Part shown: positions 5,316 through 21,846 of the stretch, piece after piece
How the letters are laid out: the number at the start of each line of letters is the position of its first letter
Numbering within the stretch: the stretch's first letter is position 1
Assembly (NCBI RefSeq): GCF_000523275.1
Contig: NZ_ATHQ01000001.1
Location: forward strand, 1,021,289 to 1,061,288
DNA: 40,000 nucleotides
Reading direction: 5' to 3'
Source: Lebetimonas sp. JH292
GTDB lineage: Bacteria > Campylobacterota > Campylobacteria > Campylobacterales > Nautiliaceae
Translations under genes and position numbers: made by a program
Notes under the pieces: model-generated
What the model saw: the letters and a program-made list of their open reading frames with translations, nothing else
Databases searched by the model: none
What the model was told of the DNA's origin: nothing

Positions 5316-6182
5316 TTATTTGTGAAAAGTTTTAATTGCTTTTTCTTTGAACTCTTCGATTTTTTGAAGAAGTTTTTTAAATATATTTTCTGTTTTACTG
5401 CCGTTTTTAATCTCTTTTTCAAGCTGTGTAATTTGTTCTTTTAACATTTTGTATGTTGTATCGCTTGTGCTTGTATATCCTAAAATTTCAGCTAAAGATA
5501 TCTGTTTTTTTGCTTCATCTAAATATTTTAAAGCCTGGTTTTTGTCTTTTTTAACACTTTCACTGGCATTTTTAACAAGGGCTTGAGCTTTGATAAGCGG
5601 GATAGGAATAACGGTATCTGTTTCTACCAATGTTGAAAGCGCCATTGACAAAACATCTTTTGCTTCTTTGGCTTTTCCTTCATTTATATATTTTAACGCC
5701 AAATTAAGAGCCGCCGGATATGTTGCAATAGGCAAATTGATTGTTTTGATCACAATTTCGCTTCTCAGAGAATTTAATACTTCCCTTGCCTGAGGTAATT
5801 TATTTTCTGCTACAAGTATTTTTACTTCATTTACAAGTTTTTTTACGTCTTTTACATCCCCTTGATATTGATATGCGTTAATTTGAACATCAACAGGTAA
5901 AAGATAAGGTGTATTAGGTCTATTTAATAAATCGCTAAGTTCCCCAATAGCTTTTTTTATTGAGTCTTTTGCTTTTTTAGTATTTTTTCCGCTTATATAT
6001 ATTAATGTATCCTGGGTATATTGGATAGCTTTTACCGCTTCATTTGCAAGTTCAGTGTTTTGGGCTTTTTTTTCCGCTTTGATTACGGCTTTTTTACTCA
6101 CCTGAGCGGTTTTTGCATCTGCGGCTAAACTAGATGATACCAAAATGGAAGCCAATACCACTGATGTTAAAATTCTTTTCAT
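5316..6182 (-). CDS. Secreted all-helical protein, tentatively YfdX-like; function unknown
   Basis: 288 aa with signal peptide MKRILTSVVLASILVSSSLAADA and helical, K/E-rich repeats. The segment NLPIATYPAALNLALKYINEGKAKEAKDVL...TDTVIPIPL recalls YfdX-family proteins; this is from memory and unverified. Confidence 0.6.
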   Translation of the reverse strand: MKRILTSVVLASILVSSSLAADAKTAQVSKKAVIKAEKKAQNTELANEAVKAIQYTQDTLIYISGKNTKKAKDSIKKAIGELSDLLNRPNTPYLLPVDVQINAYQYQGDVKDVKKLVNEVKILVAENKLPQAREVLNSLRSEIVIKTINLPIATYPAALNLALKYINEGKAKEAKDVLSMALSTLVETDTVIPIPLIKAQALVKNASESVKKDKNQALKYLDEAKKQISLAEILGYTSTSDTTYKMLKEQITQLEKEIKNGSKTENIFKKLLQKIEEFKEKAIKTFHK

Positions 6183-6245: not shown

Positions 6246-6554
6246 TTATTTATATTTATTTATATTTTTTAAATACTCGATTATAACTTCTTCGACTGTC
6301 GATTTTTTTTGTTGAGGTATATAAACTTTGAAGTATTTATCATCAATATTTTCACCTGTTATAATATGCTTCATAAAAACGGCTTTTAAAAAATTAATTA
6401 GTTTAGTTTTGTCTTTTGTCTGATATGAAGGTGATTTCATAGAAGAATATTCTTTTGTTTTAGTGTCATAAAGAATTAAATATTTACATTCTTCAAAATG
6501 TGGACAAAATTTTGAAGTCATCCATTCTCCGTCGCTTGTTATAATTATTTTCAT
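6246..6554 (-). CDS. Small NifB/NifX-like (dinitrogenase FeMo-cofactor-binding fold) domain protein, tentative
   Basis: 102 aa. MKIIITSDG...HFEECKYLILYDTKTKE...IITGENID follows the MKIAv.s.G..v..HFG....f.iyD pattern of that family, but the match is weak. Confidence 0.5.
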   Translation of the reverse strand: MKIIITSDGEWMTSKFCPHFEECKYLILYDTKTKEYSSMKSPSYQTKDKTKLINFLKAVFMKHIITGENIDDKYFKVYIPQQKKSTVEEVIIEYLKNINKYK

Positions 6555-6616: not shown

Positions 6617-7966
6617 ATGAATCTGTTTAGACAAATTCCAAAAGTGGATAAACTTTTAAAAAATAAAAATCTTCAAGATATTCCAGAGAATGTTTTGCTT
6701 TATTCCATACATTCAGTTTTGAATGAACTCAGAGAAAAAATAAAAAATAATAAAATAGATAAAATAGATGAAAATAAAATAATAAATGAAATTGAAAAAA
6801 AAGCTTGCGGCATATTAAGCCCTTCTTTAATTAATGTAATTAATGCCACAGGTGTTACAATCCATACAAATCTCGGCAGAAGTTTGATAGATGAAGAGAT
6901 TTTTGATGAAGCAAAGAAAGTCAGTACGCATTACTGTAATTTAGAATATGATTTGGATAAAGGAAAAAGGGGGGACAGGTATCATCACAGTGCGAAACAT
7001 TTGAGTTTTCTTTTTGGGTGTGAAGATGCGTTGGTTGTTAATAATAATGCGGCGGCTGTATTTTTGATTTTAAACACATTTGCAAAAGACAAAGAGGTTA
7101 TAGTGTCAAGAGGCGAACTTGTTGAAATAGGGGGAAGTTTCAGAGTGCCTGAAGTTATGAAAGCAAGCGGTGTAAAACTTGTTGAAGTCGGAACTACAAA
7201 TAAAACAAAACCAAAAGATTATGAAGAGGCAATCAATGAAAATACAGCAATGCTTATGAAAGTTCACAAATCAAATTATACTATTGAAGGGTTTAGTGAA
7301 GAAGTTTATATTGATGAAATTGTCAATCTTTCCCGTAAACATAATCTGCTTGATTATTATGATTTGGGAAGTGCATATATTCCAAAGCTTCCTTACGGAC
7401 TTTCAAACGCTGAGCCTTCAATTAATGATATAATGAAATTTTTACCTTCACTTATTAGTTTTAGCGGTGATAAACTTTTTGGAGGAGTTCAGGCGGGAAT
7501 AATTCTTGGTAAAAAAGAACTTATTAATAAACTTAAAAAAAATCAGATATTAAGGATGTTCAGGGTTGATAAAATTACACTCTCCCTTATTCAGGCAACC
7601 ACTCTTGCATATATTAAAAAAGAATATGAAAAAATTCCAACCCTCAGACAGATTTTTGCATCTATTGATGAACTCAAAAACAGGGCAAAAAAAATACTTA
7701 GCCTAACACCAGCCCTAAGGGCTAATATAAAAGAATCAAAAACATACGTAGGCGGGGGGACTATGCCAAATAAAGCCATTCCTACCGTGGTAATTGAAAT
7801 TGAAGGAAATGCTGTGAATTGGGAGAAAAAATTTAGAGAAAAACTTGTTATCGGTAGAATAGAAAATGAACATTTTGTGCTTGATGTAAGAACAATTCAG
7901 GATGATGAAATAGAAAAACTTGCAAATATAATAAATAAATTAATAAGCTGTGAGGTGAAAAGATGA
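6617..7966 (+). CDS. selA: L-seryl-tRNA(Sec) selenium transferase (selenocysteine synthase)
   Basis: 449 aa. INATGVTIHTNLGRS and the PLP-lysine motif FSGDKLFGGVQAGII match SelA. The stop overlaps the selB start (ATGA). Confidence 0.93.
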   Translation: MNLFRQIPKVDKLLKNKNLQDIPENVLLYSIHSVLNELREKIKNNKIDKIDENKIINEIEKKACGILSPSLINVINATGVTIHTNLGRSLIDEEIFDEAKKVSTHYCNLEYDLDKGKRGDRYHHSAKHLSFLFGCEDALVVNNNAAAVFLILNTFAKDKEVIVSRGELVEIGGSFRVPEVMKASGVKLVEVGTTNKTKPKDYEEAINENTAMLMKVHKSNYTIEGFSEEVYIDEIVNLSRKHNLLDYYDLGSAYIPKLPYGLSNAEPSINDIMKFLPSLISFSGDKLFGGVQAGIILGKKELINKLKKNQILRMFRVDKITLSLIQATTLAYIKKEYEKIPTLRQIFASIDELKNRAKKILSLTPALRANIKESKTYVGGGTMPNKAIPTVVIEIEGNAVNWEKKFREKLVIGRIENEHFVLDVRTIQDDEIEKLANIINKLISCEVKR

Positions 7967-9792
7967 GAAATATTATTATTGGAACCGCAGGGCATGTAGA
8001 CCATGGAAAAACATCTTTGATTGAGGCTATGACCGGGTATAACGGGGACGAGCTTAAAGAAGAAAAAGAGAGAGGAATTACAATCGATTTAAGCTTTACA
8101 AATATGAAAAGAGATGATGTAAATGTGGCATTTATAGACGTTCCGGGGCATGAAAAACTTGTAAAAAATATGATTAGCGGGGCGTTTGGATTTGACGCTA
8201 CGCTTTTTGCAATAGATGCAAACGAAGGTGTTATGCCGCAGACCATAGAGCATTTGGAAGTACTTGATATTTTAAAAGTTAAAAATATCATTGTGGCTTT
8301 GACAAAAATAGATTTGGCAAGTGAAGAAATTATTGAAAAAAGAAAAAAAGAGATAAAAGAATTAATAGCTAAATTTAAGAATTTAAAGCTTCTTGATATT
8401 ATCCCGACTTCCACTAAAATGCCTGAGACTATAGAAAATCTTAAGAATTATCTGTTTAACCTGCCTCCGAGAAATATTACACATTCCAAATTTTTCAGAT
8501 ACTATATAGACAGGGTGTTTTCCCTAAAAGGAATAGGAACTGTTGTAACAGGGACTGTTTTAAGCGGAAAAGTCAGACTTAAAGATAAAGTTTATATTAA
8601 TGAAACGGCTACTGTTACAACGGTTAAAAACCTGCAGGTTCATGGTGAAAATGTTAGTGTTGCCCATACCCATCAAAGACTTGCCATTAATCTCAATATT
8701 TCACACAATGAACTTAAAAAAGGATATTTGTTAAGTACAAAAGGATACTTAAGAGGATTTAAATTAATTGATGTTTATATTTCCCCGGTCGAAGGTAAAG
8801 AAATTAAGCATAATATGGGAGTTTTATTTATAAGCGGTGCAAAAAGAATACCTGCGAAAATTTTGATGTTTGATTCAAATGCAAAAGAAGGTTTTGCAAC
8901 TATGAAGTTGCAGGAAAAAGGATTTTTTGTTTATGAAGATCCGTTTGTGGTGCTTCATAAAGGAAGGGTTATCGGAGGAGGCGAAATTTTAAATCCTATA
9001 AGCGACCCTATTAAAAGAAATAAAAAATTATTGCTGTTAAATGCTTTAAAACAAAGGGATTTCCAAAAAGCATTTTCTATTTTGGTTGAAAATCACAAAA
9101 AAGGTTTCGGACTTCTTCAAAGTTATCAGAGATTTAATTTTTCGCCCGATGAAGCTCTCGGTATTGCAAAAACATTAAAAAATGTCTTTATAGATGAAGA
9201 AAATTATAATATTTTTTCAATGGATGTAAAAAAAGAGATAGAAAATGTGGTAAAAGAAACTTATGAAAAAAACAAATTTGCCTTTCTTTCTCCTGCATCA
9301 CTGAAACTCAGATTAAAATGGGCGAGTGAAAAATTGATTGAAACTGTTTTAAATGAATTTGTGGAAGAAGGATTTTTAATAAAAGAAGGCAATATTTATA
9401 AAAGAAAAGATCTTGGTGAAGTGAATATTGAAAAATCAGTCGAGCACAGGCTTTATTCGCTTTTGGATAATTCTGGATTAACTCCCGAAGCACCTTATAA
9501 TATATACGAAAAATTAAATATTGACAGAAAAGTGGGCGATCAGGCTATGAAGAACCTGACTAAGGCTAAAAAAGTTGTAAGGCTTGCCCATAATTTGTTT
9601 GTAAGTGATAAAAATATAAATTATGCAATGAAAAAAATGCGGGAAATTATGGAGAAAAAAGGATATATTGATATTAAAACATTTAAAGAAGAGATGCCTA
9701 TGAGCAGAAAATATATTGTGGCTTATCTTGATTATTTGGACAATATGGGGGATATTGTTAAAGTAGATAATAAAAGGTATTTGAAGAAATAA
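7963..9792 (+). CDS. selB: Selenocysteine-specific elongation factor SelB
   Basis: 609 aa. GTPase motifs GTAGHVDHGKTSL, DVPGHEKL and TKID, followed by a long C-terminal winged-helix extension typical of bacterial SelB (SECIS binding). Confidence 0.93.
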   Translation: MRNIIIGTAGHVDHGKTSLIEAMTGYNGDELKEEKERGITIDLSFTNMKRDDVNVAFIDVPGHEKLVKNMISGAFGFDATLFAIDANEGVMPQTIEHLEVLDILKVKNIIVALTKIDLASEEIIEKRKKEIKELIAKFKNLKLLDIIPTSTKMPETIENLKNYLFNLPPRNITHSKFFRYYIDRVFSLKGIGTVVTGTVLSGKVRLKDKVYINETATVTTVKNLQVHGENVSVAHTHQRLAINLNISHNELKKGYLLSTKGYLRGFKLIDVYISPVEGKEIKHNMGVLFISGAKRIPAKILMFDSNAKEGFATMKLQEKGFFVYEDPFVVLHKGRVIGGGEILNPISDPIKRNKKLLLLNALKQRDFQKAFSILVENHKKGFGLLQSYQRFNFSPDEALGIAKTLKNVFIDEENYNIFSMDVKKEIENVVKETYEKNKFAFLSPASLKLRLKWASEKLIETVLNEFVEEGFLIKEGNIYKRKDLGEVNIEKSVEHRLYSLLDNSGLTPEAPYNIYEKLNIDRKVGDQAMKNLTKAKKVVRLAHNLFVSDKNINYAMKKMREIMEKKGYIDIKTFKEEMPMSRKYIVAYLDYLDNMGDIVKVDNKRYLKK

Positions 9793-9802
9793 GAAGGAAA
9801 AA

Positions 9803-10846
9803 TTATTTAACAACTAAAGGAAACTCTTTGAATTCCTTAACAGTTGCTATTGCTTTAGCACTCACTCCTTCATTTTCCATTCTTTTTAAAAGTTCATTAA
9901 CTTTTTCCTGAGAGGCGCTGATTAAAAGCCCTCCGCTTGTCTGGGCATCAAATAGTATCATCTGCTCTTCAAAACTGAGTTCTTTTTCAAATTTTACTTT
10001 TCCTTCTAAAAATAGCTGGTTATTGTAACTTCCGGCAGGAATTATTCCCATGGATGCCTGATTAATCGCTTCTTTTAAGAAAGGCACTTTTTCAAATTCT
10101 ATTTCTATAGTGAAATTGTTAGCGCTCATTTCATACAAATGTCCTAAAAGACCAAATCCTGTAACATCTGTCATTGCATTTACACCGATTTCCCTTGCGA
10201 TAAGACTTGGTTTGTAATTTAATGTCCTTAAAATTTCAGCTACTTCACTGGCTACTGTTTTATCTATCAAATCCGCTTTTATTGCTGTTGTTAAAATTCC
10301 CATTCCAAGAGGTTTTGTTAAAACAATTACATCATCTTTTTTTAATGTATTGTTTCTTATAATTTTTTGAGGATGAATTGTACCTGTAACGCTAAGTCCG
10401 TAAATCATTTCCGGAGTTTCTATTGTATGTCCTCCGGCTAATACACCGCCGCACTCTTTTATTTTATTTTCACCGCCTTTTAAAATTTCATTTAATACAT
10501 CTTTTCCGTGATGACAGTTATCAAATCCGACTAAATTAAGGGCAGTTTTAACATCTCCTCCCATTGCAAACACATCGCTTAGGGAATTTGCAGCTGCAAT
10601 TTGTCCGTAAATAAACGGGTCGTCAACAACAGGTGTAATAAAATCGGCTGTTTGTACAAGTGCTATATCATCTGTTAATTTATAAACACTTGCATCCTCA
10701 TTTCCTTCAAATCCGACTATTAAATTTTCGTTTTTTCCATCAAGAACTTTTGTAGCTTTGTTTAGCTCCTCCGGAGCCAATTTCCCTGCTCAGCCGGCTG
10801 CTCTTACATATTTTGTAAGTTTGGCGTTGTTATTTAATTTAAGCAT
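9803..10846 (-). CDS. selD: Selenide, water dikinase (selenophosphate synthetase), selenocysteine-containing form
   Basis: The ORF track starts at 10780. Reading upstream in frame gives ATG (10846-10844) [31 protein letters not shown], with TGA at 10792-10790 as codon 19. This aligns with the E. coli SelD active-site loop (..YSHGAGCGCKI..). An RBS (AAAGGA) lies 6 nt before this ATG. The rest of the protein is the PurM-like SelD fold ([23 protein letters not shown]). Confidence 0.9.
10762..10780 (-). promoter_or_regulatory. SECIS-like hairpin downstream of the selD UGA
   Basis: On the minus strand, 10 nt after the UGA: TTGGCTCC-GGA-GGAGCTAA. That is 8 bp including one G-U pair, or 7 bp with the loop CGGAG. 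Confidence 0.55.
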
Positions 10847-10855
10847 ATATATCCT

Positions 10856-11212
10856 TTAAAATGTTATAACTTTGTCTGCTTCTTCAACCCAGGCAGCCAA
10901 GTCTTTCATTGTAGCTTTGATTTCAGGTGCAAAATATGGCTCGTTTTTAAATAATCCGCATCTTGCCTGACAAGTGCCGCATACTTTTAATTTTATACCG
11001 TTTTGATACATTTCTTTAAGCATTGCAACCAAGTCGTTGTCATAATTTTCAGGTTTTTTATTGCAATCCCTTGCCATATCCACGGCATCATTCATTAAAA
11101 AAATTCTTACATCGTTTCCTTTTTCAAACAAAACTTTTGCAAGTCTAAGTCCGTTCCAAGCTACATCGCTTCCGTCATATGGTTCGTGATTGAATATAAT
11201 TAAAATTTTCAT
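10856..11212 (-). CDS. DsrE/DsrF-like (YchN-fold) sulfur/selenium relay family protein
   Basis: 118 aa. MKILIIFNHEPYDGSDVAWNGLRLA... and the conserved Cys region KLKVCGTCQARCG are typical of the DsrE/YchN fold. It ends 9 nt upstream of the selD ATG. Confidence 0.75.
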   Translation of the reverse strand: MKILIIFNHEPYDGSDVAWNGLRLAKVLFEKGNDVRIFLMNDAVDMARDCNKKPENYDNDLVAMLKEMYQNGIKLKVCGTCQARCGLFKNEPYFAPEIKATMKDLAAWVEEADKVITF

Positions 11213-11490
11213 TTAACCTCCTTAATTTCTTTTATTTTTCCTTTATAACCTACGATTTCTATTGCGTGTAACAGTTTTTGAGGTGTTGTTTTTGTATCGT
11301 CAAAAATTACCGTTGCTATTTTAGTGTTTAGTAGTACTTTTGCTTTTATAACGCCCGGTGTCATTTTTAAACTTCTTTTTACAGCCATTGTACATAATGG
11401 ACAAGTCATTCCACTTACTTTAATAATAGCCACTTTTTCAGCTCCAAAAAGTGAACAAAATAATACTAAATTTAAAATAATTTTTTTCAT
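11209..11490 (-). CDS. Periplasmic heavy-metal-associated (HMA) domain protein, MerP-like
   Basis: 93 aa. Signal peptide MKKIILNLVLFCSLFGA followed by an HMA fold with GMTCPLC. There is a 4-nt overlap (ATGA) with the downstream DsrE-like gene. Confidence 0.8.
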   Translation of the reverse strand: MKKIILNLVLFCSLFGAEKVAIIKVSGMTCPLCTMAVKRSLKMTPGVIKAKVLLNTKIATVIFDDTKTTPQKLLHAIEIVGYKGKIKEIKEVK

Positions 11491-12075
11491 TTACTCTCCC
11501 ATAAACAGATATTGAGCCCAAAAAGGGTAAGTTAGCATAATTAATACAAAAACAGTACCAATACTTAAATATTTTACATAATTTTTGCAAATACTGCCAC
11601 TGCAAACCGGTCTTTTTCTAAGTTTAAAGAAATAATTTATCCACAAATAAACAATAATTATAACAGCTGCAATTGTAAAATAAATTCTATATGGTGCGAA
11701 AATATGTAAAAATGAAAGACTTCCGACACTTACTCCAAAAATCAAAAAAAGCAAAGGCCCTAAACAGCATGTGCTTGCCAAAATTGCAGTTATTGCCGCA
11801 CCTGCTATTAAAGCCCAAAAAGATTTTGATTTTTTACTTTCATTTTGAATTTCGCAACTGTAACCTTTTATAGCATTTATTATTGTATCTTTTCCTTCTT
11901 TTTTTTCATTAAAATAAATTCCTTGCGTTTGCAAAAATCTTTTTACATTCTGAATAGAAGAGAAGGAATTAAGTTTTATTTCAATAATTCCTTCTTCTAT
12001 TTCTTCTAATGCCTCTTTTGTTTTAAGAACAGGTTCTGGACAAGCTAAATTTCTTAAATCCAGCTTTTTTACCAT
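11491..12075 (-). CDS. Fusion protein: N-terminal TusA/SirA-like domain + C-terminal MerT-like three-helix membrane domain
   Basis: 194 aa. Residues 1-80 form a TusA fold with LRNLACPEPVLKTKEAL (CPxP motif). Residues 85-194 contain TM1 with the vicinal Cys pair ILASTCCLGPLLFLIFG (MerT signature), TM2, the loop RKRPVCSGSICKNY (second Cys pair) and TM3. Confidence 0.75.
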   Translation of the reverse strand: MVKKLDLRNLACPEPVLKTKEALEEIEEGIIEIKLNSFSSIQNVKRFLQTQGIYFNEKKEGKDTIINAIKGYSCEIQNESKKSKSFWALIAGAAITAILASTCCLGPLLFLIFGVSVGSLSFLHIFAPYRIYFTIAAVIIIVYLWINYFFKLRKRPVCSGSICKNYVKYLSIGTVFVLIMLTYPFWAQYLFMGE

Positions 12076-13199
12076 TAAAACAGTTCCTGAGAAGTAATTT
12101 TATATTCAAAACTTTTTGGAACATAATAATTTAACACATCATCATTTACCTCGGCATACGGATAACCAAACATATTTAGAGGGTATTGAACAGGTTTTGG
12201 ATAAAGTATGAAATCTCTTGCATGGTTAAATCCAACCCAGTTCATTTCCCATGAATGCAGATATTTTTTTACTAATTTTTGAACTTTTGGGTGGTTGTAA
12301 GGATATTTTTCAACTAATTCAAGTTTTGTAACATCAGCAGGGTCTGTAGGTATCCATCCAGCCCCTGGAATATAATATTCAGCCCTGCAGTGTTGCCAAG
12401 TGGTAATATTTGCAAAACCTTTACTATCACTTTTTCCAAGAGCTTTGTCAAAATGGCTTTTTCCAAGTCTGATACCAAAAACCTCTCTTGCAGGAATACC
12501 TGCCGCTCTTGTTAGGGCGGTAAAAAGTGAGCTTAAATCTGTACATTTTCCTCCAAACCATCCGTTTTTATAAATATATTCAGCTGTCGGTTTTTTTTGC
12601 TCTTGCATCATTTTGCCAACTTCACCTTTTCCGCATCCAATAGTTTTTGGATTTCTGAATGTATGGGCTGTACACCATAAATAAATTGCTTTTACTTTTT
12701 CAAACCTATCTTTTTTACCTTTTGTGATAAGTTCTGCCACTTCTTTTACAATTCCGTCAGTAGGAATATGGGCAGTAGGCTCAAGATATTTTAACACTTC
12801 TTTTGGATATGGCAGATTTTTTTTGCTGGCTTCTTTTATTAGTTCTAATGGAACACTTCTATCTTTTGTTTCAATTTCCATTTCCATTGTCAAAATTTTA
12901 GGCATAGCTGATTTTTCCCAATATGCATAAAAAGTATTTGCATCATATTCATTTTTATTGTTAATATCATAATCGTTATAATTTCCGCCAAATCTTAAAA
13001 ATTTAACTTTTTGATATGGTGCATTATATGGAAGCGGGTTCCATAATCTTGCAGGAAAACCTGGCTCGTCGTATTTGATGTTGAAATAATATTCAACCTT
13101 GAATCTTCTATAGCTTTCATCTTTTGCACTTACAATACCAGGTATAGAAACTGCCATACCTAAGGCTGCACCTGTTTTTAAAAACTCTCTTCTTTCCAT
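12075..13199 (-). CDS. TAT-exported transglutaminase-like cysteine protease-fold protein
   Basis: 374 aa. Twin-arginine signal MERREFLKTGAALGMAVSIPGIVSA. Transglutaminase-core triad context: GGKCTDLSSLFTALTRAAGIPAREVFG (Cys), WQHCRAEYYIPGAGW (His), IPTDPAD (Asp). Confidence 0.8.
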   Translation of the reverse strand: MERREFLKTGAALGMAVSIPGIVSAKDESYRRFKVEYYFNIKYDEPGFPARLWNPLPYNAPYQKVKFLRFGGNYNDYDINNKNEYDANTFYAYWEKSAMPKILTMEMEIETKDRSVPLELIKEASKKNLPYPKEVLKYLEPTAHIPTDGIVKEVAELITKGKKDRFEKVKAIYLWCTAHTFRNPKTIGCGKGEVGKMMQEQKKPTAEYIYKNGWFGGKCTDLSSLFTALTRAAGIPAREVFGIRLGKSHFDKALGKSDSKGFANITTWQHCRAEYYIPGAGWIPTDPADVTKLELVEKYPYNHPKVQKLVKKYLHSWEMNWVGFNHARDFILYPKPVQYPLNMFGYPYAEVNDDVLNYYVPKSFEYKITSQELF

Positions 13200-13204
13200 T
13201 ATTT
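13175..13204 (-). repeat. Copy 1 of a 30-nt exact direct repeat (AAATAATGGAAAGAAGAGAGTTTTTAAAAA) covering the RBS-proximal region and MERREFLK
   Basis: Identical by direct comparison to 15946-15975. It spans the start codon and twin-arginine motif of the transglutaminase-like gene. Confidence 0.9.
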
Positions 13205-13211
13205 ACTCCTT

Positions 13212-15970
13212 TTAAATTTTTTGTATTTTTATTTTTGTTGAACTAAAATCTGGTATACCTCCGATCGGATCAACCAAAGGTAAATCATAAAATTTTTTGT
13301 CTAATTTACTAATTTTATTTACACAAATTCCCATTGCTCTTTTTTTATCAGGAATTACGTAATTATTTTTAGTAACAAATAAGCACAGCATCCTTTGGCA
13401 ACAAAACATTTACTATTTTTACTTTGTCATAGTCTTTTAATCCTAATTTTTTAGCATCAATTGGGTTTATTTTTAATGTAATATCTGGTTCGTAATAAAG
13501 GGCTTTATCTAAACATATAGTTCTTGATTGTGTATGTAATGCCGATTTGTATGATGTTAAATAGAAATTTTTTTCTCCTATTATGGTATTTGTAGAAGTT
13601 GCAAGTTTTTCATTATATATATGTATTTTTTCAAAACCAAATATATAATTGTCATTTTCATCAAACCAATTGTTCTCTTTAAATACACCTCCTTTTGCTA
13701 AAACATTACATACTTTTTCCCATTCTTCTGATTGTAAAATATGTTTGTGTTTTGTAACAATATAATTTTTTTCTACATAATCAATAGTTTTTTTATCAGC
13801 CTTAGATATTTTTGCATTGTGTGCAAGATTGTAAATACCTCTTAGATAATAATCTTCTTGGGTATTTAAAGAAAATTTATTGTTTATAGCTTTTTCTCCA
13901 TAACCAGGTAATTTTAATTTTTTAGAAAGGTCAATCAAAAATTTTTCTAAATTAATATTATTTTTTGTGAGAGGCTCTATTATAGGTGTTCTAACACCAG
14001 TAAAATGACCTCCAGGAGCATGTGGATTTAAAAAGCCATAATGTCCTGTCTTAATCTGCATAGATATTTGTTTCATTAATAGTTGTGTCTATTGATACAA
14101 ACAGAGGAACTTTTGTTTTATTTTTTAACGTAGATTCAAATCTGTATCCTCCAGGCAGGATATTTTTGGTCTATACCGCTCATTGCGGCTACACTTAATC
14201 CTCCTTTAGTAATAAATATCCTCCTTTTCTGTTTACATTTCCAATTAATGCATTTAACATAGAAATTGCATAACTTGCATAAGTTCCGTTTATATAGTTT
14301 CCTCCTCCATGATACGCAAAAGCTGCACTGTGTGGGGCAATGTTTTTTTTATTAACTCCGCATTCTTTAGCATAATCATCAATTGAATGTTCAAAAACAG
14401 AGTTTTTCATTATTTTAAATGCTGTAACTACTTTATTTTACCTTCATATTCTAATATTGTATTTTTAGAATAAGTTTTCCAATTTTCCATAAAATCATCA
14501 TTTTTTAGTCCAATATCTGACCCTCTTAAAAATTTTCCATAATTTTTGTTTTCTTTATCAATTATTACTAAATGTGTAGCATTTGAAAATGTTGATCTTT
14601 TTTTATTTTTAGCTTCTTCTAAGTTTTTTTCTAAGAGAATTGCTTTTGGAGCTTTTGGATCAATTAATACGATTTTTAAATCATTATTTGCAGTTCTTTT
14701 TGCAATTATACTTCCTGATGTATTTACTCCGAATAAATATTAGCACCAAATATTAACATATATTTACAATTTTGAAAATCTGCCTTCATTTCAGCTTCTT
14801 TTCCGTCTGTAAAAGCGTAATTACCCATTCTAAAGCCGATACCACATATATCAGTATGTGCAATATAATTTTTTGAACCGATAGAATTATAAACCCATCT
14901 TTTTATAAAATCTACTCTTCCTCCTTGGGAACGTCCTGTAAACCATACAAATTGGTTTCTTTTAGAACCTAATTCTTCAGCTTCTTTTCAGATAAAATAT
15001 CTTTTATGCCTGGATAATATGTTTCATCCCCTAAATGTTTAAAATTTTTACCTCCGAAAGCTATTTCATTTATTAAAGTATCCCAATCTATAGGTTCGAA
15101 TTTTCCGCTTCCTCTTTCACCGTTTTTAAAGGTTTTGTTATTCTGTAAGGATTATAAACATATTCATTATTCATTTGCGGTTTTGCACACGTTGATGCTG
15201 AATATTTAAAACTTTTTTCTATATCTGTTGAATAAGAAATTTGGTTGAAATCTCTATTATATGGGTGATAAGGATTTCCATCAACTTGTACACATTTGTT
15301 GTCTTTAACGGCTATTCTTAAACCGCATCTTGCATTACAAGCTAAACAGACGGTATTTACTATTTTATCTGCTTTTGGTTTTTTTGTTTCATAAAATCCA
15401 TATTTTTCTTTATAAATAGGTGTAACATCAGTAAAAGTCGCTAAATGGTGATAAAGTGCATATTTTAAAGTTGGATTGTTTTCTAGAAGTTCTTTTAATT
15501 GTCCTTTAGGATTTTTAAGATTTCCATAAACTAAAGCCCCGCCTGGGCAAATACTGACACATCTTGGAATGTCTCCTTGAATAATTCTGTCAAAACACAT
15601 ATCGCATTTTTTTGCTTTTTTATCAAAAACTATAGCGTCAAAAGGACAGGCTTTAGCACAACTTTGTTTATTTTCGGCACAATTGATATCACATTTGTCT
15701 TCATTTATTAATATAACTCCATCTTTTGCACAAATTGCAATATATTCAAACGCTCGGCACAAAAGTTTTTATTTTGAAAAACACTACATCATAAGGAAGA
15801 TTTTTTTCAAGTTGACATGCTGCCATACAGCTTTTGCAGTCTAAACATCTGCTTTGGTCATATATTAAAACAGGCATAAATTCATTTTCTTCAGCATTAG
15901 CAAATTTAAATGTTGTTGTGCTGATTAAAACACTAAATGCTCCAATTTTTAAAAACTCTCTTCTTTCCAT
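13212..15970 (-). pseudogene. Decayed gene for a TAT-signal 4Fe-4S ferredoxin fused to a Mo/W-bisPGD (DMSO-reductase-superfamily, Psr/Phs/Ttr-like) oxidoreductase
   Basis: Stitching the minus-strand frames gives one continuous homolog: MERREFLK (TAT), CLDCKSCMAAC, CAKACP, CDMC...CVSICP (ferredoxin), CLACNARCG (MopB N-terminal cluster), ITKPLK/GERGSGKFEPIDWDTLINEIA, FVWFTGRSQGG, YIAHTDICGIGF (Cys ligand region), MLIFGANIY, IVLIDP, VVTAFKIMKNSVFEHSIDDYAKECGVNKKNI, GNVNRKGG, VPLFVSIDTTINETNIYAD, KLGLKDYDKVKIVN, DPIGGIPDFSSTKIKIQKI. At least 8-9 frame breaks or stops interrupt it, near 15746-15781, 15121-15133, 14981-14992, 14722-14740, 14428-14442, 14192-14210, 14158-14170, 14048-14063 and 13369-13409, mostly in A/T runs. 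Confidence 0.8.
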
Positions 15971-15975
15971 TATTT
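15946..15975 (-). repeat. Copy 2 of the 30-nt exact direct repeat (start region of the Mo-oxidoreductase relic)
   Basis: Identical to 13175-13204. Confidence 0.9.
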
Positions 15976-15978
15976 TCC

Positions 15979-16569
15979 TTATAAGCTAATAGTATTTTTG
16001 TGAAGTAGAAAGTCCATTGTGTCGTATGCGTTTCCTATTTCTCCGACTTTTAGCTCTTCTGGAGGAATTTTGTAAAAATTCATACAAACGCCGCATGAAT
16101 AAATTTTTACGCCTCTTTTTTCAAATTCTTTTAAAATTTCTATTGTTTTTTCATTTTTTGTTGTTAAAAATACACCTCTGTTTACACATACAATAATTTC
16201 AGGAAGTTTTTTAAATTCAAGTGTTGTTTTTAAAAATCCTTCTATTAATATGTGTCCAAGCTCGCCTTCTCCAACTTTGTCATCTTTTATAAAAAGCACC
16301 TTATCTAAAAATTTATCATTATCTTCTTCTTTTGGTGCAATACTGCATTCATAACCTTTTACAATCCTGATTATGGTTTCACCATTATCCAGTTTTTCTT
16401 CTTCTGCAACCAGTCCCTGGTTTGCCGCAAATCTTTTAACGTTTTGAACAGATGAAATAGAATTTACCAAAACCTCCAAAATTCCTTCGTCCATCTCTTC
16501 AAGTGCTTTTTTTGTATCAAGCACAGGTTTTGGACATGCCGCATTTCTGCAGTCTATTTTTTTATTCAT
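15979..16569 (-). CDS. yedF: YedF-like selenium-metabolism-associated protein (TusA/SirA-like N-domain + DsrE-like C-domain)
   Basis: 196 aa. The N-terminus CRNAACPKPVLDTKKALEEMDEG (CPxP) is paralogous to the N-domain of 11491..12075. The C-terminal half, with IIVCVNRGVFL and KIYSCGVCMNFY, is DsrE-like. Length and architecture fit the roughly 200-aa YedF family (TIGR03527, recalled from memory). Confidence 0.72.
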   Translation of the reverse strand: MNKKIDCRNAACPKPVLDTKKALEEMDEGILEVLVNSISSVQNVKRFAANQGLVAEEEKLDNGETIIRIVKGYECSIAPKEEDNDKFLDKVLFIKDDKVGEGELGHILIEGFLKTTLEFKKLPEIIVCVNRGVFLTTKNEKTIEILKEFEKRGVKIYSCGVCMNFYKIPPEELKVGEIGNAYDTMDFLLHKNTISL

Positions 16570-17329
16570 TTGTTACTCCTTTTGTTGTTTCGTATCCGGC
16601 AAGAGCCGCTCCGAATGCCCCCATCATCTGAGGATATTCCGGTGTGTATACTTCTTTTTTTAATTTTTTTGAAAGCAATTCCCTAAGAAGTGAATTTTTA
16701 GCTCCTCCCCCGGTAAAAACGATTTTGTCTTCCGGTCTAATGCTTTTGGCCATTCCGGCTAATCTTGATGCTATTGAATCAATAATTCCGTATCCTATAT
16801 TTTCAGGCTTTTCTTTTTTTGCCATAAGAGAAATTACTTCTGATTCGGCAAATACCGCACACATTGAAGATATCTGGATTGTTTTGTCAGCTTTTTTACA
16901 AAAATCTCCAAACTCATCAAGCGGAATCTGGAGTTTTACAGCCGCCATTTCTATAAATTTTCCGGTTCCGGCCGCACATTTGTCGTTCATTTTGAAATTA
17001 TCAAAATTTCCGCCTTCGGTTACTTTTATTACCTTGCTGTCCTGTCCTCCTAAATCAATAACAGTTCTTACATCCGGAAAGAAAAAATAAGCCCCTTTTG
17101 CATGGGCTTTTATTTCGCTGATTACAGGAACGTCAAACGCTTCTTGCATCATATATCTTCCATAACCTGTTGCAACCAGGGTTTCAATAGGTTTATCTTT
17201 TAAATATTCTTTTACCTGTTCGTCGGGATTTATAACGGTATCTAATACTTTAATGTCAATTATGTTTTTATTATCATCAATTCCAACAATTTTTGTATAG
17301 GTTGAGCCTATGTCAACTCCGTAATACAT
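16562..17329 (-). CDS. BcrAD/BadFG-type ATPase: activator of a (R)-2-hydroxyacyl-CoA dehydratase-like or double-cubane reductase
   Basis: 255 aa. ASKHA fold with GVDIGSTYTKIV and DLGGQDSKVI. The two cluster-bridging Cys contexts are MNDKCAAGTGKF and ISSMCAVFAESEV, and FTGGGAKN is present. Confidence 0.85.
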   Translation of the reverse strand: MYYGVDIGSTYTKIVGIDDNKNIIDIKVLDTVINPDEQVKEYLKDKPIETLVATGYGRYMMQEAFDVPVISEIKAHAKGAYFFFPDVRTVIDLGGQDSKVIKVTEGGNFDNFKMNDKCAAGTGKFIEMAAVKLQIPLDEFGDFCKKADKTIQISSMCAVFAESEVISLMAKKEKPENIGYGIIDSIASRLAGMAKSIRPEDKIVFTGGGAKNSLLRELLSKKLKKEVYTPEYPQMMGAFGAALAGYETTKGVTNE

Positions 17330-18642
17330 TAAAATCCTTTAAATTTAACGTTCTTTTTAAATGAAATACTTTCCAAAAACGCTTCAACTCTTGTTTTAAT
17401 CTGACCCATATCTTCCATTGAATAATCAGATTCAATTCTTAAAACAGGAATATTTTCAGCCTGAAGTCTGTCTATTACTCTTTTTGATTCCACGTTGTAT
17501 GTATGACAAAAAGAGAGTGAATAATAAATAATACCGTCAGCTTTTCTTTCTTTATACATTTTGATTATTTTATCTATTCTATCATCATTTGGAGTAAAGC
17601 ATGCACAGTCTATTTTCATATATCTATCAAGCATATTATTCATTAAATCATCAATAGTTTCAGCTCCTTGGGTTTCAATATTGTCTTTATAATATCTGTG
17701 TCCGATACATGCTTCTTCGTTTATTATTACTCCACCGGTTGTTTCAACAATATGATGAAGCTTCCAGTTTGGAGGTGCCATAGGTGTTCCAATTACCATA
17801 ATTCTCGGAGTATCTTTTTTTACAACAGAAACGCATTTTTTAATTCTTTCTTCAAGTTCGTCGCAAAGTTCATTTACTTTTTGTGTAAATCTTTCAGGGT
17901 CGTCATAAAAAGAGATTTGGTTAATTAAAAGTCCGTCTTTTCCGCTGATAGGTACAACATCAGGATACATGCCCCTTAATTTGTCAAGACGCTGCATGGC
18001 TTCTCTTTTTTTGTTTATAATTTCAATTCCCTTTTTAAGCTCTTCAAATGTAAGTTCTTTTCCTATAATTGATTCAATGTGTTTTTTAAAATCATAAACT
18101 TCACTTTTCCAAAGTTCTTTTTCTTTTTCTCTTTTCATTTGAGGAATATGCATTACATGAGTTGGGTGCAATTCGTTTAAAATTTCCCATGTTTTTTTCT
18201 TAGCTTCGCAGCTTGTTTCCCCGTATATAAAATCTGAAGCCTGTGTATACGGACATGTTTTTTGAACTTTAAATCCATACGCAGATTTAATTAAAGGGCA
18301 TATATTTCTTGGCAAATCTCTTTCGGCATCTGCAATAGAAAATTCAGCCCCGCCGCATAATCCGTAACATACTCCATCAGCCCCGACAACAATTTCTTCC
18401 GGGACAAATATACAAAAAGTTCCAACTAAAGGTTTTCCTTCTTTTTTCTTTTCTAAAATTTCTTCTATTCTTTTACCGTGTATTTCACTCATTACATAAT
18501 CAAAATATTCCATTGCTTTTGGTCTGTTTTCCTGCTTTAAAAAAAATTCAGGATATATTTCACCCAGAGCAGCCAAAAGTTCATTGTGTTTTTCTATATC
18601 CATACCAAGTTCTTGATACATAGGTGTGTAATCTTTAGACAT
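17329..18642 (-). CDS. 2-hydroxyacyl-CoA dehydratase (HGD-D) family protein, single-subunit type; candidate double-cubane-cluster reductase
   Basis: 437 aa, Cys-rich ([58 protein letters not shown]). A single HGD-D gene paired with one activator ATPase, rather than an alpha/beta pair, matches the DCCP arrangement. Confidence 0.75.
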
Positions 18643-18795
18643 ACTTATCCTTTTTTAATTTTTTTAATTTTTATTTTTTTAGGATAAGCCTTATCCTTTT
18701 AACAACATTTTATCTTGAAGGTTTTAGAAGTACATCATGAAGCTTTTAGGAGTTTATGCCTCATGTGTTTCCCAGCCTGGGAGCTTAATTAGAGA

Positions 18796-18801
18796 ATTAT
18801 A
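18796..18801 (-). promoter_or_regulatory. Possible -10 box (TATAAT) for the 18642-9803 gene string
   Basis: A minus-strand TATAAT about 150 nt upstream of the ATG at 18642. No -35 element was evaluated, and read-through from the Crp-family gene is equally possible. Confidence 0.3.
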
Positions 18802-18836
18802 ACTCTTTTTTTCTTAAAGTTTGCTTAAAGTTTAAA

Positions 18837-19478
18837 TTATTGTAAATAATTTTTTAATTTTTTCATATCTATAATGATGTATTTGTCTTTGCCGATTTTT
18901 TTCAAAATTTTTTCTTTTATCAGTTGATTAAAAAATTTGGAAGTAGTCTGTCTTTGCGAACCGATAAAAGTTGCCAAATCTTTTATGCTTAAAGATAAGT
19001 CTATTTCAATACCTTCATCAGTTTTTTTACCGCTTTTTTTTGCAATTTCCAAAAGAAATGAAATTATTCTTCTTTTGCAGTTTTCAAAAACCAAGCCTTT
19101 AATAATATCTTTTTCAACCATCATAATATTTCTGAATGAATTTAATACAGAATTACAAAACATAGGATTATCGAAAACGGCAGGATGTTTTGTAACATCA
19201 AGAGATAAAACAACGGAGTCGCTTAGAAATTCAATTATAGATTCCGGATGCATTACATATATATTATTTTTCGATAAAAAATATAATATAAATTCTTTGT
19301 CTTCATATAAAAAAGAAACTTTTGCTTCACCTTCTTTAAAAATTAACAGTTTTGTTTTTTCTTCAGGATAAAATATTTCCCCTTTTTTAAAATGCATTTT
19401 TACAAATTTTGATAAATCTTCTTTACTCAAAATTTTTTCTATATCAAAACTGTCAATTTTAATTCTGCAAAATTTCAT
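18837..19478 (-). CDS. Crp/Fnr-family transcriptional regulator
   Basis: 213 aa. N-terminal cNMP-binding-like beta-roll and C-terminal HTH (LSIKDLATFIGSQRQTTSKFFNQLIKEKIL). It lacks the N-terminal Cys cluster of true FNR. It is divergent from fdhF. Confidence 0.8.
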   Translation of the reverse strand: MKFCRIKIDSFDIEKILSKEDLSKFVKMHFKKGEIFYPEEKTKLLIFKEGEAKVSFLYEDKEFILYFLSKNNIYVMHPESIIEFLSDSVVLSLDVTKHPAVFDNPMFCNSVLNSFRNIMMVEKDIIKGLVFENCKRRIISFLLEIAKKSGKKTDEGIEIDLSLSIKDLATFIGSQRQTTSKFFNQLIKEKILKKIGKDKYIIIDMKKLKNYLQ

Positions 19479-19614: not shown

Positions 19615-21846
19615 ATGACAAAAGTACAAACCACATGTCCTTATTGTGGGACAGGTTGTAATATAGATTTGATTGTTGAAAACGGAAGAGTCGTTAAAGC
19701 GGAAGGCACTAAAAACCATCCTGTAAATGACGGTGAATTGTGTTTAAAAGGTATGTTTGGATGGGAATATATACATTCTCCAAAAAGACTGACCAAACCT
19801 TTAATCAGAAAAAAATATGGTAAATATTCAAGAGATGGACGTTTGGAAGAATCTTCATGGGAAGAAGCATACGCTCTTGTTGCTTCAAAATTAAAAGAAA
19901 CTGTTGAAAAATATTCATCTGATAGCGTTGTAGGTTTTTCATCAGCAAGATGTACAAATGAAGAAAATTATATTTTTCAAAAATTTATAAGGGCACTTGG
20001 TTCAAATAATGTAGACCACTGTGCTCGTTTTTGACACGGTCCTACAGTAGCCGGTCTGGCTAAAACACTTGGAAGCGGGACTATGACAAACGATTTGGCG
20101 GAATTTGCAACAGATACGGATGTGTTTTTATTAATAGGTACAAATACAAGTGAATGCCATCCTATAATCGCTATGCAGGTTTTAAGAGGCCTTGAGAGAG
20201 GTGCAAAGCTTGTTGTAATTGACATTAAAAAAACAGATATGGCAAAAAAAGCGGATGTATTTATCCAGATACCGAGCGGATATAATATACCTTTAATTAA
20301 TGCAATGATAAATTATATTATTCAAAACAATTTATATGATAAAGAATTTGTTGAGAAATATACAAACGGATTCGAATGGTTAAAAGAAACAGTTAAAGAT
20401 TTTACATTTGAAAAAGTGGAAAAAGAAACAGGTGTGTCAAAAGAACTTTTGATTGAAGCTACTGAATTATATGCAAAAGGTAATCCTTCCGCAATACTTT
20501 ATACAATGGGAATTACCCAGTTTATAGACGGAACATATAATGTAATGGATGTTTCAAACCTTGCAATTGTTACTGGGAATTTAGGTAAAAAAGGAGGAGG
20601 TGTCAATCCCCTAAGAGGCCAAAACAATGTTCAGGGTGCAGGTGATATGGGCGCTCTTCCTGGTGATTTGCCAAATGGAAAAGTGACTGATCCAAAAGCC
20701 CGTGAAAAAGCTGAGGAAATTTGGGGATTTAAAATAAATCCAATTCCAGGCTTAAAACTTTCTCAAGTACCTCATGCAATTGATGAGGGAAAAGTGAAAT
20801 TTTTATATATTTTTGGAGAAAATCCTGTAATGAGCGATCCGTGGACGGAACATTTTATTCACGCTTTGAAAAAAACAGATTTTATAGTTGTTCAGGATAT
20901 TTTTCTTACAGAAACAGCCCAGGAAGCGGATGTTGTATTGCCAAGTGCGTGCTGGGGTGAAAAAGACGGAACATTTAGTAACACTTCAAGAAAAGTTCAA
21001 TTGGTAAGAAAAGCTGTTGAGCCTCCTGCAAATTTAAATCCAGACTGGAAAGTAATCTGTAATGTAGCAAACAGAGTAGGGTTAAAAGGCTTTAATTTCA
21101 ATACGGCTGAGGAAATTTGGAATGAAGTCAGAAAATTAAACCCTTTCAAATTTAAAGGGATTACTTATGAAAGAATGGCTAAATTAAACGGAATAAACTG
21201 GCCTTGTCCTGATGAAGATCATCAGGGAACTCCTTATTTGTATGAAGATAACAAATCTTTTTTACCTGACGGAAAATTCAAACTTGTACCTATTGGTTAT
21301 ACATTAGATAAAAATGAAAGAATTGTTTTAGAAAATAAATTAAGAAAAACTTTTAATATTCCTGATGATTATCCTGTAGGCGTTGGGTGTCCTAGTGAAC
21401 AGCCTACAGAAGAATATCCTTGTATGTACACAACAGGTAGGAAAGTTTATCATTATCATACAGGAACAATGACAAGAAAATGCAAACCTCTTGAAATGGG
21501 TGCAGATATTATGGGACCTGTTATTGAGGTCAGCGAAGATATAGCAAGAGAAAGAAATTTGGAGAATGGATGCTATGCCGTGGTTTATAATAAAAGAGGA
21601 AAGATTGCTGCAAAAGTATTGGTAAATAAAGACTTAAGATACGGAACTATATTTACCACATTTCATTATGCGGAAGCAGACGGAAACGAACTTACCAATG
21701 CAGAGGAATCAGACCCGGTATCAGGAATGCCGCCACTTAAAATGTCAATAGCGGATATTAAAAAAATTTCCGAAGAAGAATTTTTAAAAATAAGAACAGA
21801 AATTCTTAGAGAAATAGAACCTGAAATTATTGAAAGGAGGGGTTAA
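19615..21846 (+). CDS. fdhF: Formate dehydrogenase H-type catalytic subunit (cytoplasmic, Mo/W-bisPGD), selenocysteine-containing
   Basis: The two ORF-track pieces (19615..20034 and 20083..21846) are in the same frame, separated only by TGA at 20032-20034. Read-through gives [30 protein letters not shown], the canonical FDH active-site Sec context. The N-terminus has TCPYCGTGC with no TAT signal. Confidence 0.92.
20035..20075 (+). promoter_or_regulatory. Bacterial SECIS element of fdhF
   Basis: UGA CAC GGU CCU ACA GUA GCC GGU CUG GCU A. The apical hairpin is UAGCC-GGUCU-GGCUA (20048-20062). The loop sequence and spacing closely parallel the E. coli fdhF SECIS (..GUUGCA GGUCU GCAC..). Confidence 0.65.

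Follow-up and report, generated by a model that had tools for sequence, protein, structure and literature searches.

How trace selenium is told from sulfur, imported and handed to the selenophosphate synthetase SelD without free toxic selenide is a question raised by a string of genes in Lebetimonas sp. JH292, a hydrothermal-vent anaerobe (Nautiliaceae, Campylobacterota) with a genome of 1.64 Mb and ~30% G+C (assembly GCF_000523275.1, 99.7% complete). The window, that is, the whole stretch of 40,000 nucleotides analyzed here (contig NZ_ATHQ01000001.1, positions 1,021,289 to 1,061,288), harbors on its minus strand eight intact genes and one decayed pseudogene that run as nine consecutive units from 18642 to 9803 and end in selD. 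We lean, with a probability of about 55%, toward the view that this string is a selenium-supply operon for SelD, built from two recurrent selenium-linked modules. The evidence lies in the identity and tight coupling of the genes, in the conservation of their core, in the co-occurrence of relatives with selD, and in repeated co-location with selD, selA or selB across phyla in varied orders.

From its upstream end, the string encodes a double-cubane-cluster protein (DCCP), an activase, YedF, the remnant of a molybdenum (Mo) enzyme, a transglutaminase-fold protein (TGase), a TusA::MerT-like fusion, a MerP-like protein, a DsrE-like protein and SelD. Successive junctions measure −1 nt (DCCP/activase), −8 (activase/YedF), +8 (YedF/pseudogene), +12 (pseudogene/TGase), −1 (TGase/fusion), 0 (fusion/MerP), −4 (MerP/DsrE) and +9 (DsrE/selD). 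All starts are ATG, each with an AGGA/GGAG-type Shine-Dalgarno sequence upstream, and we infer that the stretch from 18642 to 9803 is co-transcribed. The gene ends and starts given in an earlier note on this DNA were reproduced by an open reading frame (ORF) listing and a junction script, and its family assignments for all nine products were borne out by profile hidden Markov models (Table 1). SelD itself is read only if the TGA at 10790-10792 is decoded as selenocysteine (Sec19); the N-terminal glycine-rich loop then reads AAGUAGK with U19, and together with a score above the family cut-off this makes the product a member of the SelD family.

Table 1. Features of the window, with the evidence for each; the nine units of the string are given first, in the order of transcription.
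Feature	Position	Strand	Evidence or remark
Double-cubane-cluster protein (DCCP, HGD-D fold)	17329-18642	-	NF040772 476 bits (cut-off 350), PF06050 401 bits
ASKHA-type ATP-dependent electron-transfer activase (DCCP reductase/archerase)	16562-17329	-	PF01869 182 bits, TIGR00241 248 bits
YedF (TusA-like N and DsrE-like C domains)	15979-16569	-	TIGR03527 193 bits (cut-off 110)
Pseudogene, TAT-exported 4Fe-4S ferredoxin::Mo-bisPGD oxidoreductase (TtrB::TtrA-like)	13212-15970	-	Many stops
TAT-exported transglutaminase-fold protein (TGase)	12075-13199	-	PF01841 70 bits (cut-off 23); TAT (twin-arginine translocation) signal
YedF-N/TusA::MerT-like fusion	11491-12075	-	PF01206 60 bits, PF02411 47 bits (cut-off 32.9), TIGR03527
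Secreted MerP/CopZ-like HMA protein	11209-11490	-	PF00403 52 bits
Stand-alone DsrE-like protein	10856-11212	-	PF02635 75 bits; directly upstream of selD
selD, selenophosphate synthetase	9803-10846	-	TIGR00476 355 bits (cut-off 125)
Two-hairpin 5' leader	18718-18786	-	Between TATAAT-like box 18796-18801 and DCCP start
Crp/Fnr-family regulator	18837-19478	-	PF13545 55 bits; 194 nt from DCCP start; putative unit member only
fdhF with Sec140	19615-21846	+	Translation with TGA=U; first gene of the formate hydrogenlyase cluster
tRNA-Sec	5146-5240	+	ARAGORN and Rfam RF01852
selA	6617-7966	+	Convergent with selD; orthologues carry PF03841 SelA
selB	7963-9792	+	Convergent with selD; orthologues carry PF09107 SelB

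Six more Nautiliaceae genomes (G001, G003, G006, G010, G018 and G024) keep the order YedF-[Mo enzyme]-TGase-fusion-MerP-DsrE-selD, so the arrangement is not due to chance. The core shared across the family comprises YedF, TGase, the MerT-like protein with or without its YedF-N/TusA domain, the MerP-like and DsrE-like proteins, and SelD. Genes for TGase, a fusion or MerT-like protein and a MerP-like protein also lie beside selD in other families, namely in two further genomes (G027 and G031), in Arcobacter nitrofigilis and in two metagenome contigs (L030 and L031) where selD is divergent from the other three. In Caminibacter profundus the order is DCCP-activase-YedF-DsrE-selD-selA-selB, with the envelope genes not at that place. 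In A. nitrofigilis, selB-selA-selD diverge from DCCP-activase, which are followed by a YedF-C-type DsrE gene and then TGase-MerT-MerP. An Acidobacteriaceae metagenome-assembled genome (MAG) carries DCCP-activase-DsrE-selD-selA-selB-TGase on one strand, Caldimicrobium has TGase-DCCP-activase, and Herminiimonas has fdhF-selA-selB-TGase. Since such loci of other taxa are rearranged, the string of Lebetimonas is one combination of recurrent modules among several, and its composition is not fixed. The "nine-gene system" proposed in the earlier note must consequently be narrowed to a Lebetimonas-specific concatenation.

The first of these associations is that of TGase with the MerT-like and MerP-like proteins, hereafter the trio. 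A TGase alignment scan, with one genome per species, yielded at least 594 relatives, and neighborhoods were read for the best 80 loci. Among these, TGase is followed on its own strand, at a distance of no more than 1 kb, by a MerT-like gene in 27/28 Campylobacterota, 10/10 Enterobacterales, 12/12 Pasteurellaceae and 2/2 Shewanella loci, and then, with few exceptions, by a MerP-like gene. Carriers include Leclercia, Citrobacter, Serratia fonticola, Buttiauxella, Kluyvera and Haemophilus influenzae. Within the same 80 loci, selD lies no more than 6 kb from TGase in 9 of the 28 from Campylobacterota and in a few others. More distant TGase homologues (35-38% identity, as in Nitrosospira) have none of these neighbors, and the TusA::MerT fusion came up solely in some of the Campylobacterota. 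Wherever flanking genes were read, dsr, sox and tRNA-thiolation genes were not among them.

These comparisons also bear on the possibility that the genes have no functional relation and share the locus only because a small genome is densely packed. Such packing would fit the decay of the Mo gene, the patchy presence of DCCP and activase among genera, and the hints that DCCP has moved horizontally (75-81% identity to its counterparts in other phyla, a broken copy flanked by insertion sequences). However, the families have re-associated in varied orders and orientations in the Nautiliaceae, the Arcobacteraceae, the Acidobacteriaceae MAG, Caldimicrobium and Herminiimonas, and within four orders the trio hardly varies. 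Mere packing is thus strongly disfavored by the comparative data, and we regard it as very improbable.

A link with selenium is also seen in phyletic distribution. Of 251 Campylobacterota genomes, each at least 90% complete, 190 have selD and 93 have TGase, all 93 being selD-positive, although genome-level figures overstate the association because relatives are not independent. At genus level, all 17 genera with TGase are among the 34 of 48 that have selD (hypergeometric probability 5.5e-4). Within one genus, a genome with selD (G003) has TGase and the fusion, and two genomes without selD (G007 and G011) lack TGase, the fusion and YedF. Outside the Campylobacterota, selD is present in 10/10 trio-bearing genomes and in 4/5 that have TGase only. 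The earlier note had stated beforehand that a selenium link would be in trouble if homologous clusters were as common in genomes without a selenium trait; the opposite was observed, and in the Campylobacterota sample TGase occurs with selD only.

The same counts help to weigh a sulfur relay, in which the TusA, DsrE and MerT-like proteins would move persulfide, for instance for FdhD-dependent sulfuration of the Mo/W cofactor of formate dehydrogenase (FDH) or for sulfur metabolism, and selD would be a mere neighbor as FDH needs both. Sulfur carriage is the classical task of TusA and DsrE (PF01206, PF02635), the Nautiliaceae are sulfur-reducing vent organisms, the window holds fdhD, moeA and fdhF, and FDH genes flank several homologous clusters. 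Yet selD accompanies TGase in all 93 genomes, and congeners without selD are also without the system; the genes found closest by and most often are selD, selA and selB rather than fdhD, dsr, sox or tus; the YedF family is itself defined by co-occurrence with SelD; and capture by a periplasmic CxxC protein of metallochaperone type has no counterpart in known persulfide relays. On balance, we consider a sulfur relay unlikely.

The second recurrent association is that of DCCP and its activase with selenium genes. The DCCP of the window, the only one of the genome, is of the long class and carries an N-terminal extension. Its seven cysteines (C77-x18-C96-x18-C115-x29-C145-x166-C312-x33-C346-x32-C379), its score and an activase gene overlapping by 1 nt make it a DCCP; the first spacer is 18 residues here and 19 in the published motif. 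In a metagenomic sample of 80 loci whose DCCPs are 49-67% identical to that of the window, an activase was called in 67, in most cases no further than 300 nt from DCCP. The neighborhood includes YedF in 22 of the 80 and selD in 13, and one or the other stands beside DCCP in 28; TGase adjoins DCCP in four. Where at least 8 kb of flank was available, 17 of 41 loci had a selenium gene, against ~2.5% by chance. Haft and Gwadz found 955 of 970 DCCPs in genomes with SelD, and the metagenomic loci turn that genome-level co-occurrence into a neighborhood signal. The data also agree with the STRING partners of YedF reported for Slackia by Lin et al. (2015): an activase, a transglutaminase-like enzyme and a dehydratase subunit of HGD type.

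Relatives of the DCCP in other phyla include a Desulfurobacterium (Aquificota) copy, with 81% identity, and a protein of Thermotomaculum (Acidobacteriota), with 75%. The gene for the former (locus L026) is broken and lies between IS605/IS481-type genes. Such high identity across phyla, together with the flanking insertion sequences, suggests that DCCP genes have moved horizontally among vent thermophiles. Among the Nautiliaceae, DCCP and activase occur at the locus studied here in the two Lebetimonas genomes only.

The Mo enzyme gene, called decayed in the earlier note, is a true pseudogene. When an intact orthologue of 1143 residues was used as tblastn query, ten colinear high-scoring segment pairs in three frames covered 971/1143 residues, and the damage is such that the frame changes nine times or more and three internal stretches are deleted. 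The gene is a relic of a fused ferredoxin and Mo-bisPGD (molybdenum-bis(pyranopterin guanine dinucleotide)) oxidoreductase, whose intact orthologues of 1143-1155 residues are found at L020:4174-7605 and L018:9269-12736. An intact orthologue scores 480 bits on the TtrA model NF011567 (cut-off 1750), which leaves it outside TtrA; the enzyme is related, though distantly, to the Ttr/Phs/Arr reductases. It is found in 2/7 Nautiliaceae loci and is absent from G001, G003, G010 and G024. With two intact Nautiliaceae copies, four deletions and the decay seen here, the gene offers a snapshot of gene loss within a conserved operon. A Mo enzyme beside the trio was considered as a general trait and dropped: in H. 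influenzae (L092 4706-10581) the trio is divergent from a dmsABC-type reductase operon (DMSO/selenate family), but the other Pasteurellaceae loci examined lack this arrangement and it is not general among the 80 loci. Neither the Mo enzyme, dead here and present in two of seven loci, nor DCCP and activase, not found in three sister genomes, can be an obligatory step.

Two proteins of the string are proposed cytoplasmic carriers. YedF, a family of selenium metabolism known as FdhU in Campylobacter jejuni, carries the CPxP cysteine Cys12 and a CGVC motif (Cys159/162), and by score and by the presence of selD in the same operon it is a member of its family. The stand-alone DsrE-like protein has an invariant CGxC motif (Cys78/Cys81; alignment A4) in common with the C domain of YedF. 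It passes PF02635 only, with 32 bits on the TusD/DsrE model TIGR03012 (cut-off 89). Its gene is also a neighbor of selD in C. profundus (L029) and in the Acidobacteriaceae MAG (L105). The N domain of the fusion, in turn, matches best positions 1-81 of the YedF model TIGR03527 (58 bits, KGYxC motif included). Because the fusion N domain and the DsrE-like protein each match one half of YedF, they resemble the halves of a second, divided YedF whose N half is tethered to a membrane protein.

The cysteines of the fusion are Cys12 (CPxP) and Cys75 (KGYxC), the pair Cys103-Cys104 of helix 1, and Cys158-x4-Cys163 in the loop that joins helix 2 to helix 3. The Cys-Cys pair and the Cys-x4-Cys of the MerT part are invariant, and the CPxP cysteine of the TusA part is kept (alignment A1). 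An AlphaFold2 model places a TusA domain at residues 1-70, followed by a disordered linker and by helices 86-113, 121-152 and 166-192. MerT architecture and cysteines are thus present, with a score of 51 bits on the MerT model NF010314 (cut-off 150). Given the topology known for the MerT family, the fused TusA domain would lie on the cytoplasmic side.

The two remaining members of the trio are exported. In TGase, Cys189 (GCGxG), a catalytic-type Cys219, His270-Cys271 and Asp286 are conserved (alignment A2), and the Cys219/His270/Asp286 triad is nearly invariant across 31 sequences; with its score over the cut-off, this places the protein in the superfamily. The AlphaFold2 model (predicted local distance difference test, pLDDT, 91.6) combines a beta-sandwich with a transglutaminase core, and the nearest solved folds are 3ISR, an uncharacterized cysteine protease, and the periplasmic domain of TgpA. 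In the MerP-like protein the loop GM(T/H)CPLCT, with Cys30 and Cys33, is invariant (alignment A3); the protein scores 61 bits on the MerP model TIGR02052, under the cut-off of 92.55. Among the nearest NCBIfam neighbors are MerP, CopZ and MerT/CopZ-type selenoproteins.

Complex prediction with mature TGase and mature MerP-like protein gave a score of 0.83, compared with 0.00 for the best of three controls; this mark was reached by 58/80 solved complexes and 2/110 mismatched pairs. Runs shared 100% of contacts, and the pLDDT of the partners was at least 91. The predicted interface sets the CPLC loop of the MerP-like protein (residues 29-35) against TGase residues 191 and 193, flanking Cys189, and 336-359. 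In terms of model confidence, as distinct from measurement, this supports binding, with the CxxC loop docked beside the Cys189 loop of TGase.

The resemblance to mercury resistance systems deserves attention. As in mer, a periplasmic HMA protein with a GMxCxxC loop is found together with a three-helix inner-membrane protein that has a Cys-Cys pair in helix 1 and another cysteine pair in the loop that links helix 2 to helix 3, and the thiol-to-thiol hand-over across the membrane that we propose is borrowed from the mer relay. In contrast with mer, however, the Lebetimonas string contains neither MerA nor MerR, its MerT-like and MerP-like proteins score under the equivalog cut-offs, the MerT-like protein is fused to a YedF-type TusA domain, a TAT-exported transglutaminase-fold protein is an obligatory partner, and the system co-occurs with selD, its proposed cargo being selenium. 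The best MerA-model match in the genome reaches 212 bits (cut-off 454) and the only regulator nearby is of Crp/Fnr type, so the locus falls outside the mer systems.

Handling of a thiophilic metal is the explanation that mer-like features call to mind: the MerT-like and MerP-like proteins would import or chaperone Hg, Cu, Cd or an organometallic compound, as proposed for the SAO locus, with TGase as a periplasmic partner and only an indirect link to selenium. Matches to the MerT and HMA/MerP profiles speak for it, as do the ties drawn by Haft and Gwadz between DCCPs and a proposed organometallic system; a solved periplasmic domain of TgpA was, going by its title, crystallized with ethylmercury. 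Nevertheless, the genome has no MerA over cut-off, and the nine genes include no MerR, P-type ATPase, MerB-like protein or ABC transporter. Subthreshold MerT and MerP scores, the fusion of MerT to a YedF-type N domain, and strict co-occurrence and co-location with selD argue in the same direction. The settings examined are housekeeping-like, with mobile genes only at the broken Desulfurobacterium DCCP and at Arcobacter locus L027 (an integrase ~8 kb off). For these reasons metal handling seems to us quite unlikely.

A comparison with the YedE/YedF pair (FdhT/FdhU) is also relevant. In both cases YedF is present and a membrane protein beside a TusA-like acceptor is tied to SelD and FDH; fdhTU reportedly control selenium-dependent FDH biogenesis in C. 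jejuni. Here, however, the 10-transmembrane-helix YedE was not found, and an unrelated MerT-like protein with periplasmic partners stands in its proposed place. The YedE model TIGR04112 gave no match at E <= 0.001 in the Lebetimonas genome, and YedE was not found in the genomes searched from the Nautiliaceae and the families f4, f6, f8 and f10. That the Lebetimonas genome has no match to YedE or MerA, and hence no alternative route or mer partner, counts for a supply function. Complementarity of YedE and the trio was considered and rejected, as the pattern is not clean: vent families have the trio only, genus g17 (Campylobacter concisus-type) has both, and genus g26 has neither at the thresholds used. 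In the 30 genomes of g26, a genus of Campylobacterota, selD is found in 28, TGase in none, and YedE in none with TIGR04112 at E <= 1e-40. Selenium entry in g26 is explained by neither the trio nor YedE at these thresholds.

Other known systems share parts with the string. Like the DCCP systems of Carboxydothermus (CHY_0487) and Escherichia coli (YjiM/YjiL), that of Lebetimonas has an NF040772 member with the seven-cysteine motif and an adjoining ASKHA activase. No physiological substrate of DCCPs is known from the literature, and small molecules have been proposed as substrates of the long class, to which the DCCP of the window belongs. What differs is that the pair is embedded, here and at many loci, among YedF, DsrE and selD, which suggests a selenium species as the DCCP substrate. 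The TusA/DsrEFH (TusBCD) and YeeE/YeeD (TsuA/TsuB) systems likewise have a TusA CPxP cysteine, DsrE-fold carriers, and a transporter with a TusA-like acceptor. The Lebetimonas proteins nevertheless score under the TusD/TusC and YeeD cut-offs, carry CGxC instead of the single active cysteine of DsrE, and have sel rather than tus, dsr or sox partners.

A further published parallel is the SAO locus of Haft and Gwadz, in which DCCPs, a DsrE-like CxxC protein and Mer-related proteins are tied to selenium-using anaerobes. The gene set of Lebetimonas is different, however, as is its phylum, and SelD is the only selenoprotein among the nine. No matches to ABC-transporter, efflux-pump or MerB-type families were found in the nine products, and the Sao-specific NCBIfam models are not among their matches. 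The view that the combination is undescribed holds in part. YedF is a published SelD-linked candidate whose family is defined by its co-occurrence with SelD, and the link between DCCP and SelD is published as well; on the other hand, we found no paper on the trio or on the TusA::MerT fusion in a selenium context. A review of 2022 lists no known high-affinity selenium transporter.

A relay can be drawn from these observations, in which we infer what is carried and in which chemical form, which way it travels, the role of the DCCP, and every hand-off save the predicted contact between TGase and the MerP-like protein. The TAT-exported TGase would capture a selenium species on its conserved cysteines and pass it to the CxxC of the MerP-like protein, most plausibly as a Cys-S-Se-S-Cys or perselenide adduct. 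The MerT-like protein would carry selenium across the membrane from the Cys-Cys pair of helix 1 to the Cys-x4-Cys loop, which would face the cytoplasm by analogy with the passage of Hg(II) through MerP and MerT. The fused YedF-N/TusA domain would then take over the selenium and hand it to the CGxC proteins (the stand-alone DsrE-like protein and YedF), and these would deliver it in reduced form to the Sec19 loop of SelD. As an optional extra in Lebetimonas, the DCCP and its ATP-driven activase may supply low-potential electrons by which Se(0)/Se(II) on its carriers would be reduced to the level of selenide.

A relay of this kind might also run from inside to outside, or trap reactive selenium in the periplasm, and thereby serve detoxification, export or sequestration in a trace-selenium cell exposed to metal-rich vent fluid. 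A part of YedE and YedF in export or detoxification was suggested by Lin et al., thiol-relay chemistry is presumably reversible, and the intact Mo enzyme of some relatives resembles reductases of the Ttr/Psr/Arr clade. Against this, the operon ends in selD, a consumer of reduced selenium, and the adjacency of the DsrE-like gene and selD is kept across phyla. MerT and MerP provide a precedent for import. In addition, control of FDH biogenesis in C. jejuni by fdhTU, going by the title of Shaw et al. (2012) and by what Lin et al. relate, points to supply rather than removal. We judge detoxification improbable, about as much as metal handling.

Several observations weigh against a selenium-supply function. 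The main caveat is that selD, widespread in these lineages, travels with formate dehydrogenase, so that co-occurrence cannot separate selenium supply from FDH maturation; a role in FDH maturation or in sulfur transfer is compatible with the phyletic data alone. By pedigree, TusA, DsrE, MerT and MerP are sulfur or metal handlers. Experimental data on these genes (expression, genetic or biochemical) are limited to fdhTU of C. jejuni. The distant TGase-only genome of Nitrosospira sp. Nsp1 is without selD, and the trio lies away from sel genes in g17, the Enterobacterales and the Pasteurellaceae; moreover, g17 has YedE in addition to the trio, which leaves no clean either/or pattern. Three complete sister genomes retain the other core genes but yielded no DCCP or activase, and a selenium gene is not nearby in 24 of the 41 metagenomic DCCP loci with long flanks, nor in Sulfurospirillum arcachonense. 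Finally, the model of the fusion has low confidence in its inter-domain geometry (predicted template-modeling score 0.43), leaving the TusA domain unfixed with respect to the membrane part.

The string is preceded by a leader that may be of regulatory interest. The leader, conserved in five Nautiliaceae, stands ahead of whichever gene opens the operon: DCCP in Lebetimonas and C. profundus, YedF in G006 and G010. It is made of a hairpin of variable sequence followed by an 11-bp hairpin and the invariant AUGAUGUACU. RNAalifold on the five sequences predicted 17 pairs, four of them with compensatory changes, and folding z-scores were −3.09 for the 168-nt intergenic region (18643-18810) and −3.89 for a 54-nt core (18722-18775). 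No Rfam family matched the leader, and no obvious likeness to the selenocysteine insertion sequence regions of selD and fdhF was seen. The leader could be a regulatory RNA for the operon. A direct repeat, CTTTAAG, lies at 18813-18830, near the TATAAT-like box. The Fnr/Crp box TTGAT-N4-ATCAA was matched three times where 5.7 matches were expected, and nowhere in the promoter region, and a scan for promoters and terminators gave counts equal to the expectation from shuffled sequence, the DNA being AT-rich.

As for the surroundings, the Sec machinery (selC, selA, selB) and the Sec-dependent formate hydrogenlyase described in the earlier note are indeed present on either side of the string. The formate hydrogenlyase cluster extends from fdhF to ~31358, with Hyf/Hyc-type subunits and HycH, and is followed by focA and fdhD (Pfam matches). 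An orthologue of the Crp/Fnr-family regulator adjoins fdhF and selA in Caminibacter. The proteins closest to those of the window are from Lebetimonas natsushimae (94% identity), and then from Caminibacter and Nautilia.

Some additional loci in or near the window were recorded. About 300 nt before its start, at G000:C1:1020159-1020993 (+), selU/mnmH (TIGR03167) is represented by two adjoining pieces in different frames, which match model positions 2-179 (193 bits) and 190-303 (88 bits); a frameshifted or split selU beside the sel region is possible. At 33289-34017 (+), after fdhD, a 242-aa protein has a LysR-type helix-turn-helix at residues 148-204, an unusual position, and a comparable 244-aa gene is found between fdhD and moeA in C. 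profundus (L029 7083-7817). It may be related to the selenium-linked LysR family of Lin et al. (2015). Three ORFs of 100-157 aa have no Pfam match (4603-5076 (+), 6246-6554 (-) and 30918-31358 (+)). Two of them flank tRNA-Sec and selA, near a YfdX-family gene at 5316-6182, and the one after hycH may be a candidate HycI-like protease.

A bolder proposal goes beyond the operon and is, in our estimate, possible though rather doubtful: that the trio is the first dedicated bacterial selenium importer, moving protein-bound selenotrisulfide or perselenide along a Mer-like cysteine relay and occurring from vent Campylobacterota to Haemophilus, Shewanella and enterobacteria; that the [8Fe-9S] DCCPs are ATP-driven selenium reductases making selenide for SelD on YedF/DsrE carriers; and that the leader RNA senses selenium status. 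Under a selenium-supply function, the operon and its rearranged relatives would offer candidates for every step: capture (TGase and the MerP-like protein), passage through the membrane (the MerT-like protein), carriers (the YedF-N domain, the DsrE-like protein and YedF), and an optional reductase (DCCP with its activase). A second question, that of the physiological substrate of double-cubane-cluster proteins, would be addressed as well. As the trio is found in tractable bacteria such as H. influenzae, Shewanella, Serratia, Arcobacter and C. concisus, the hypothesis is directly testable, and its practical interest is high.

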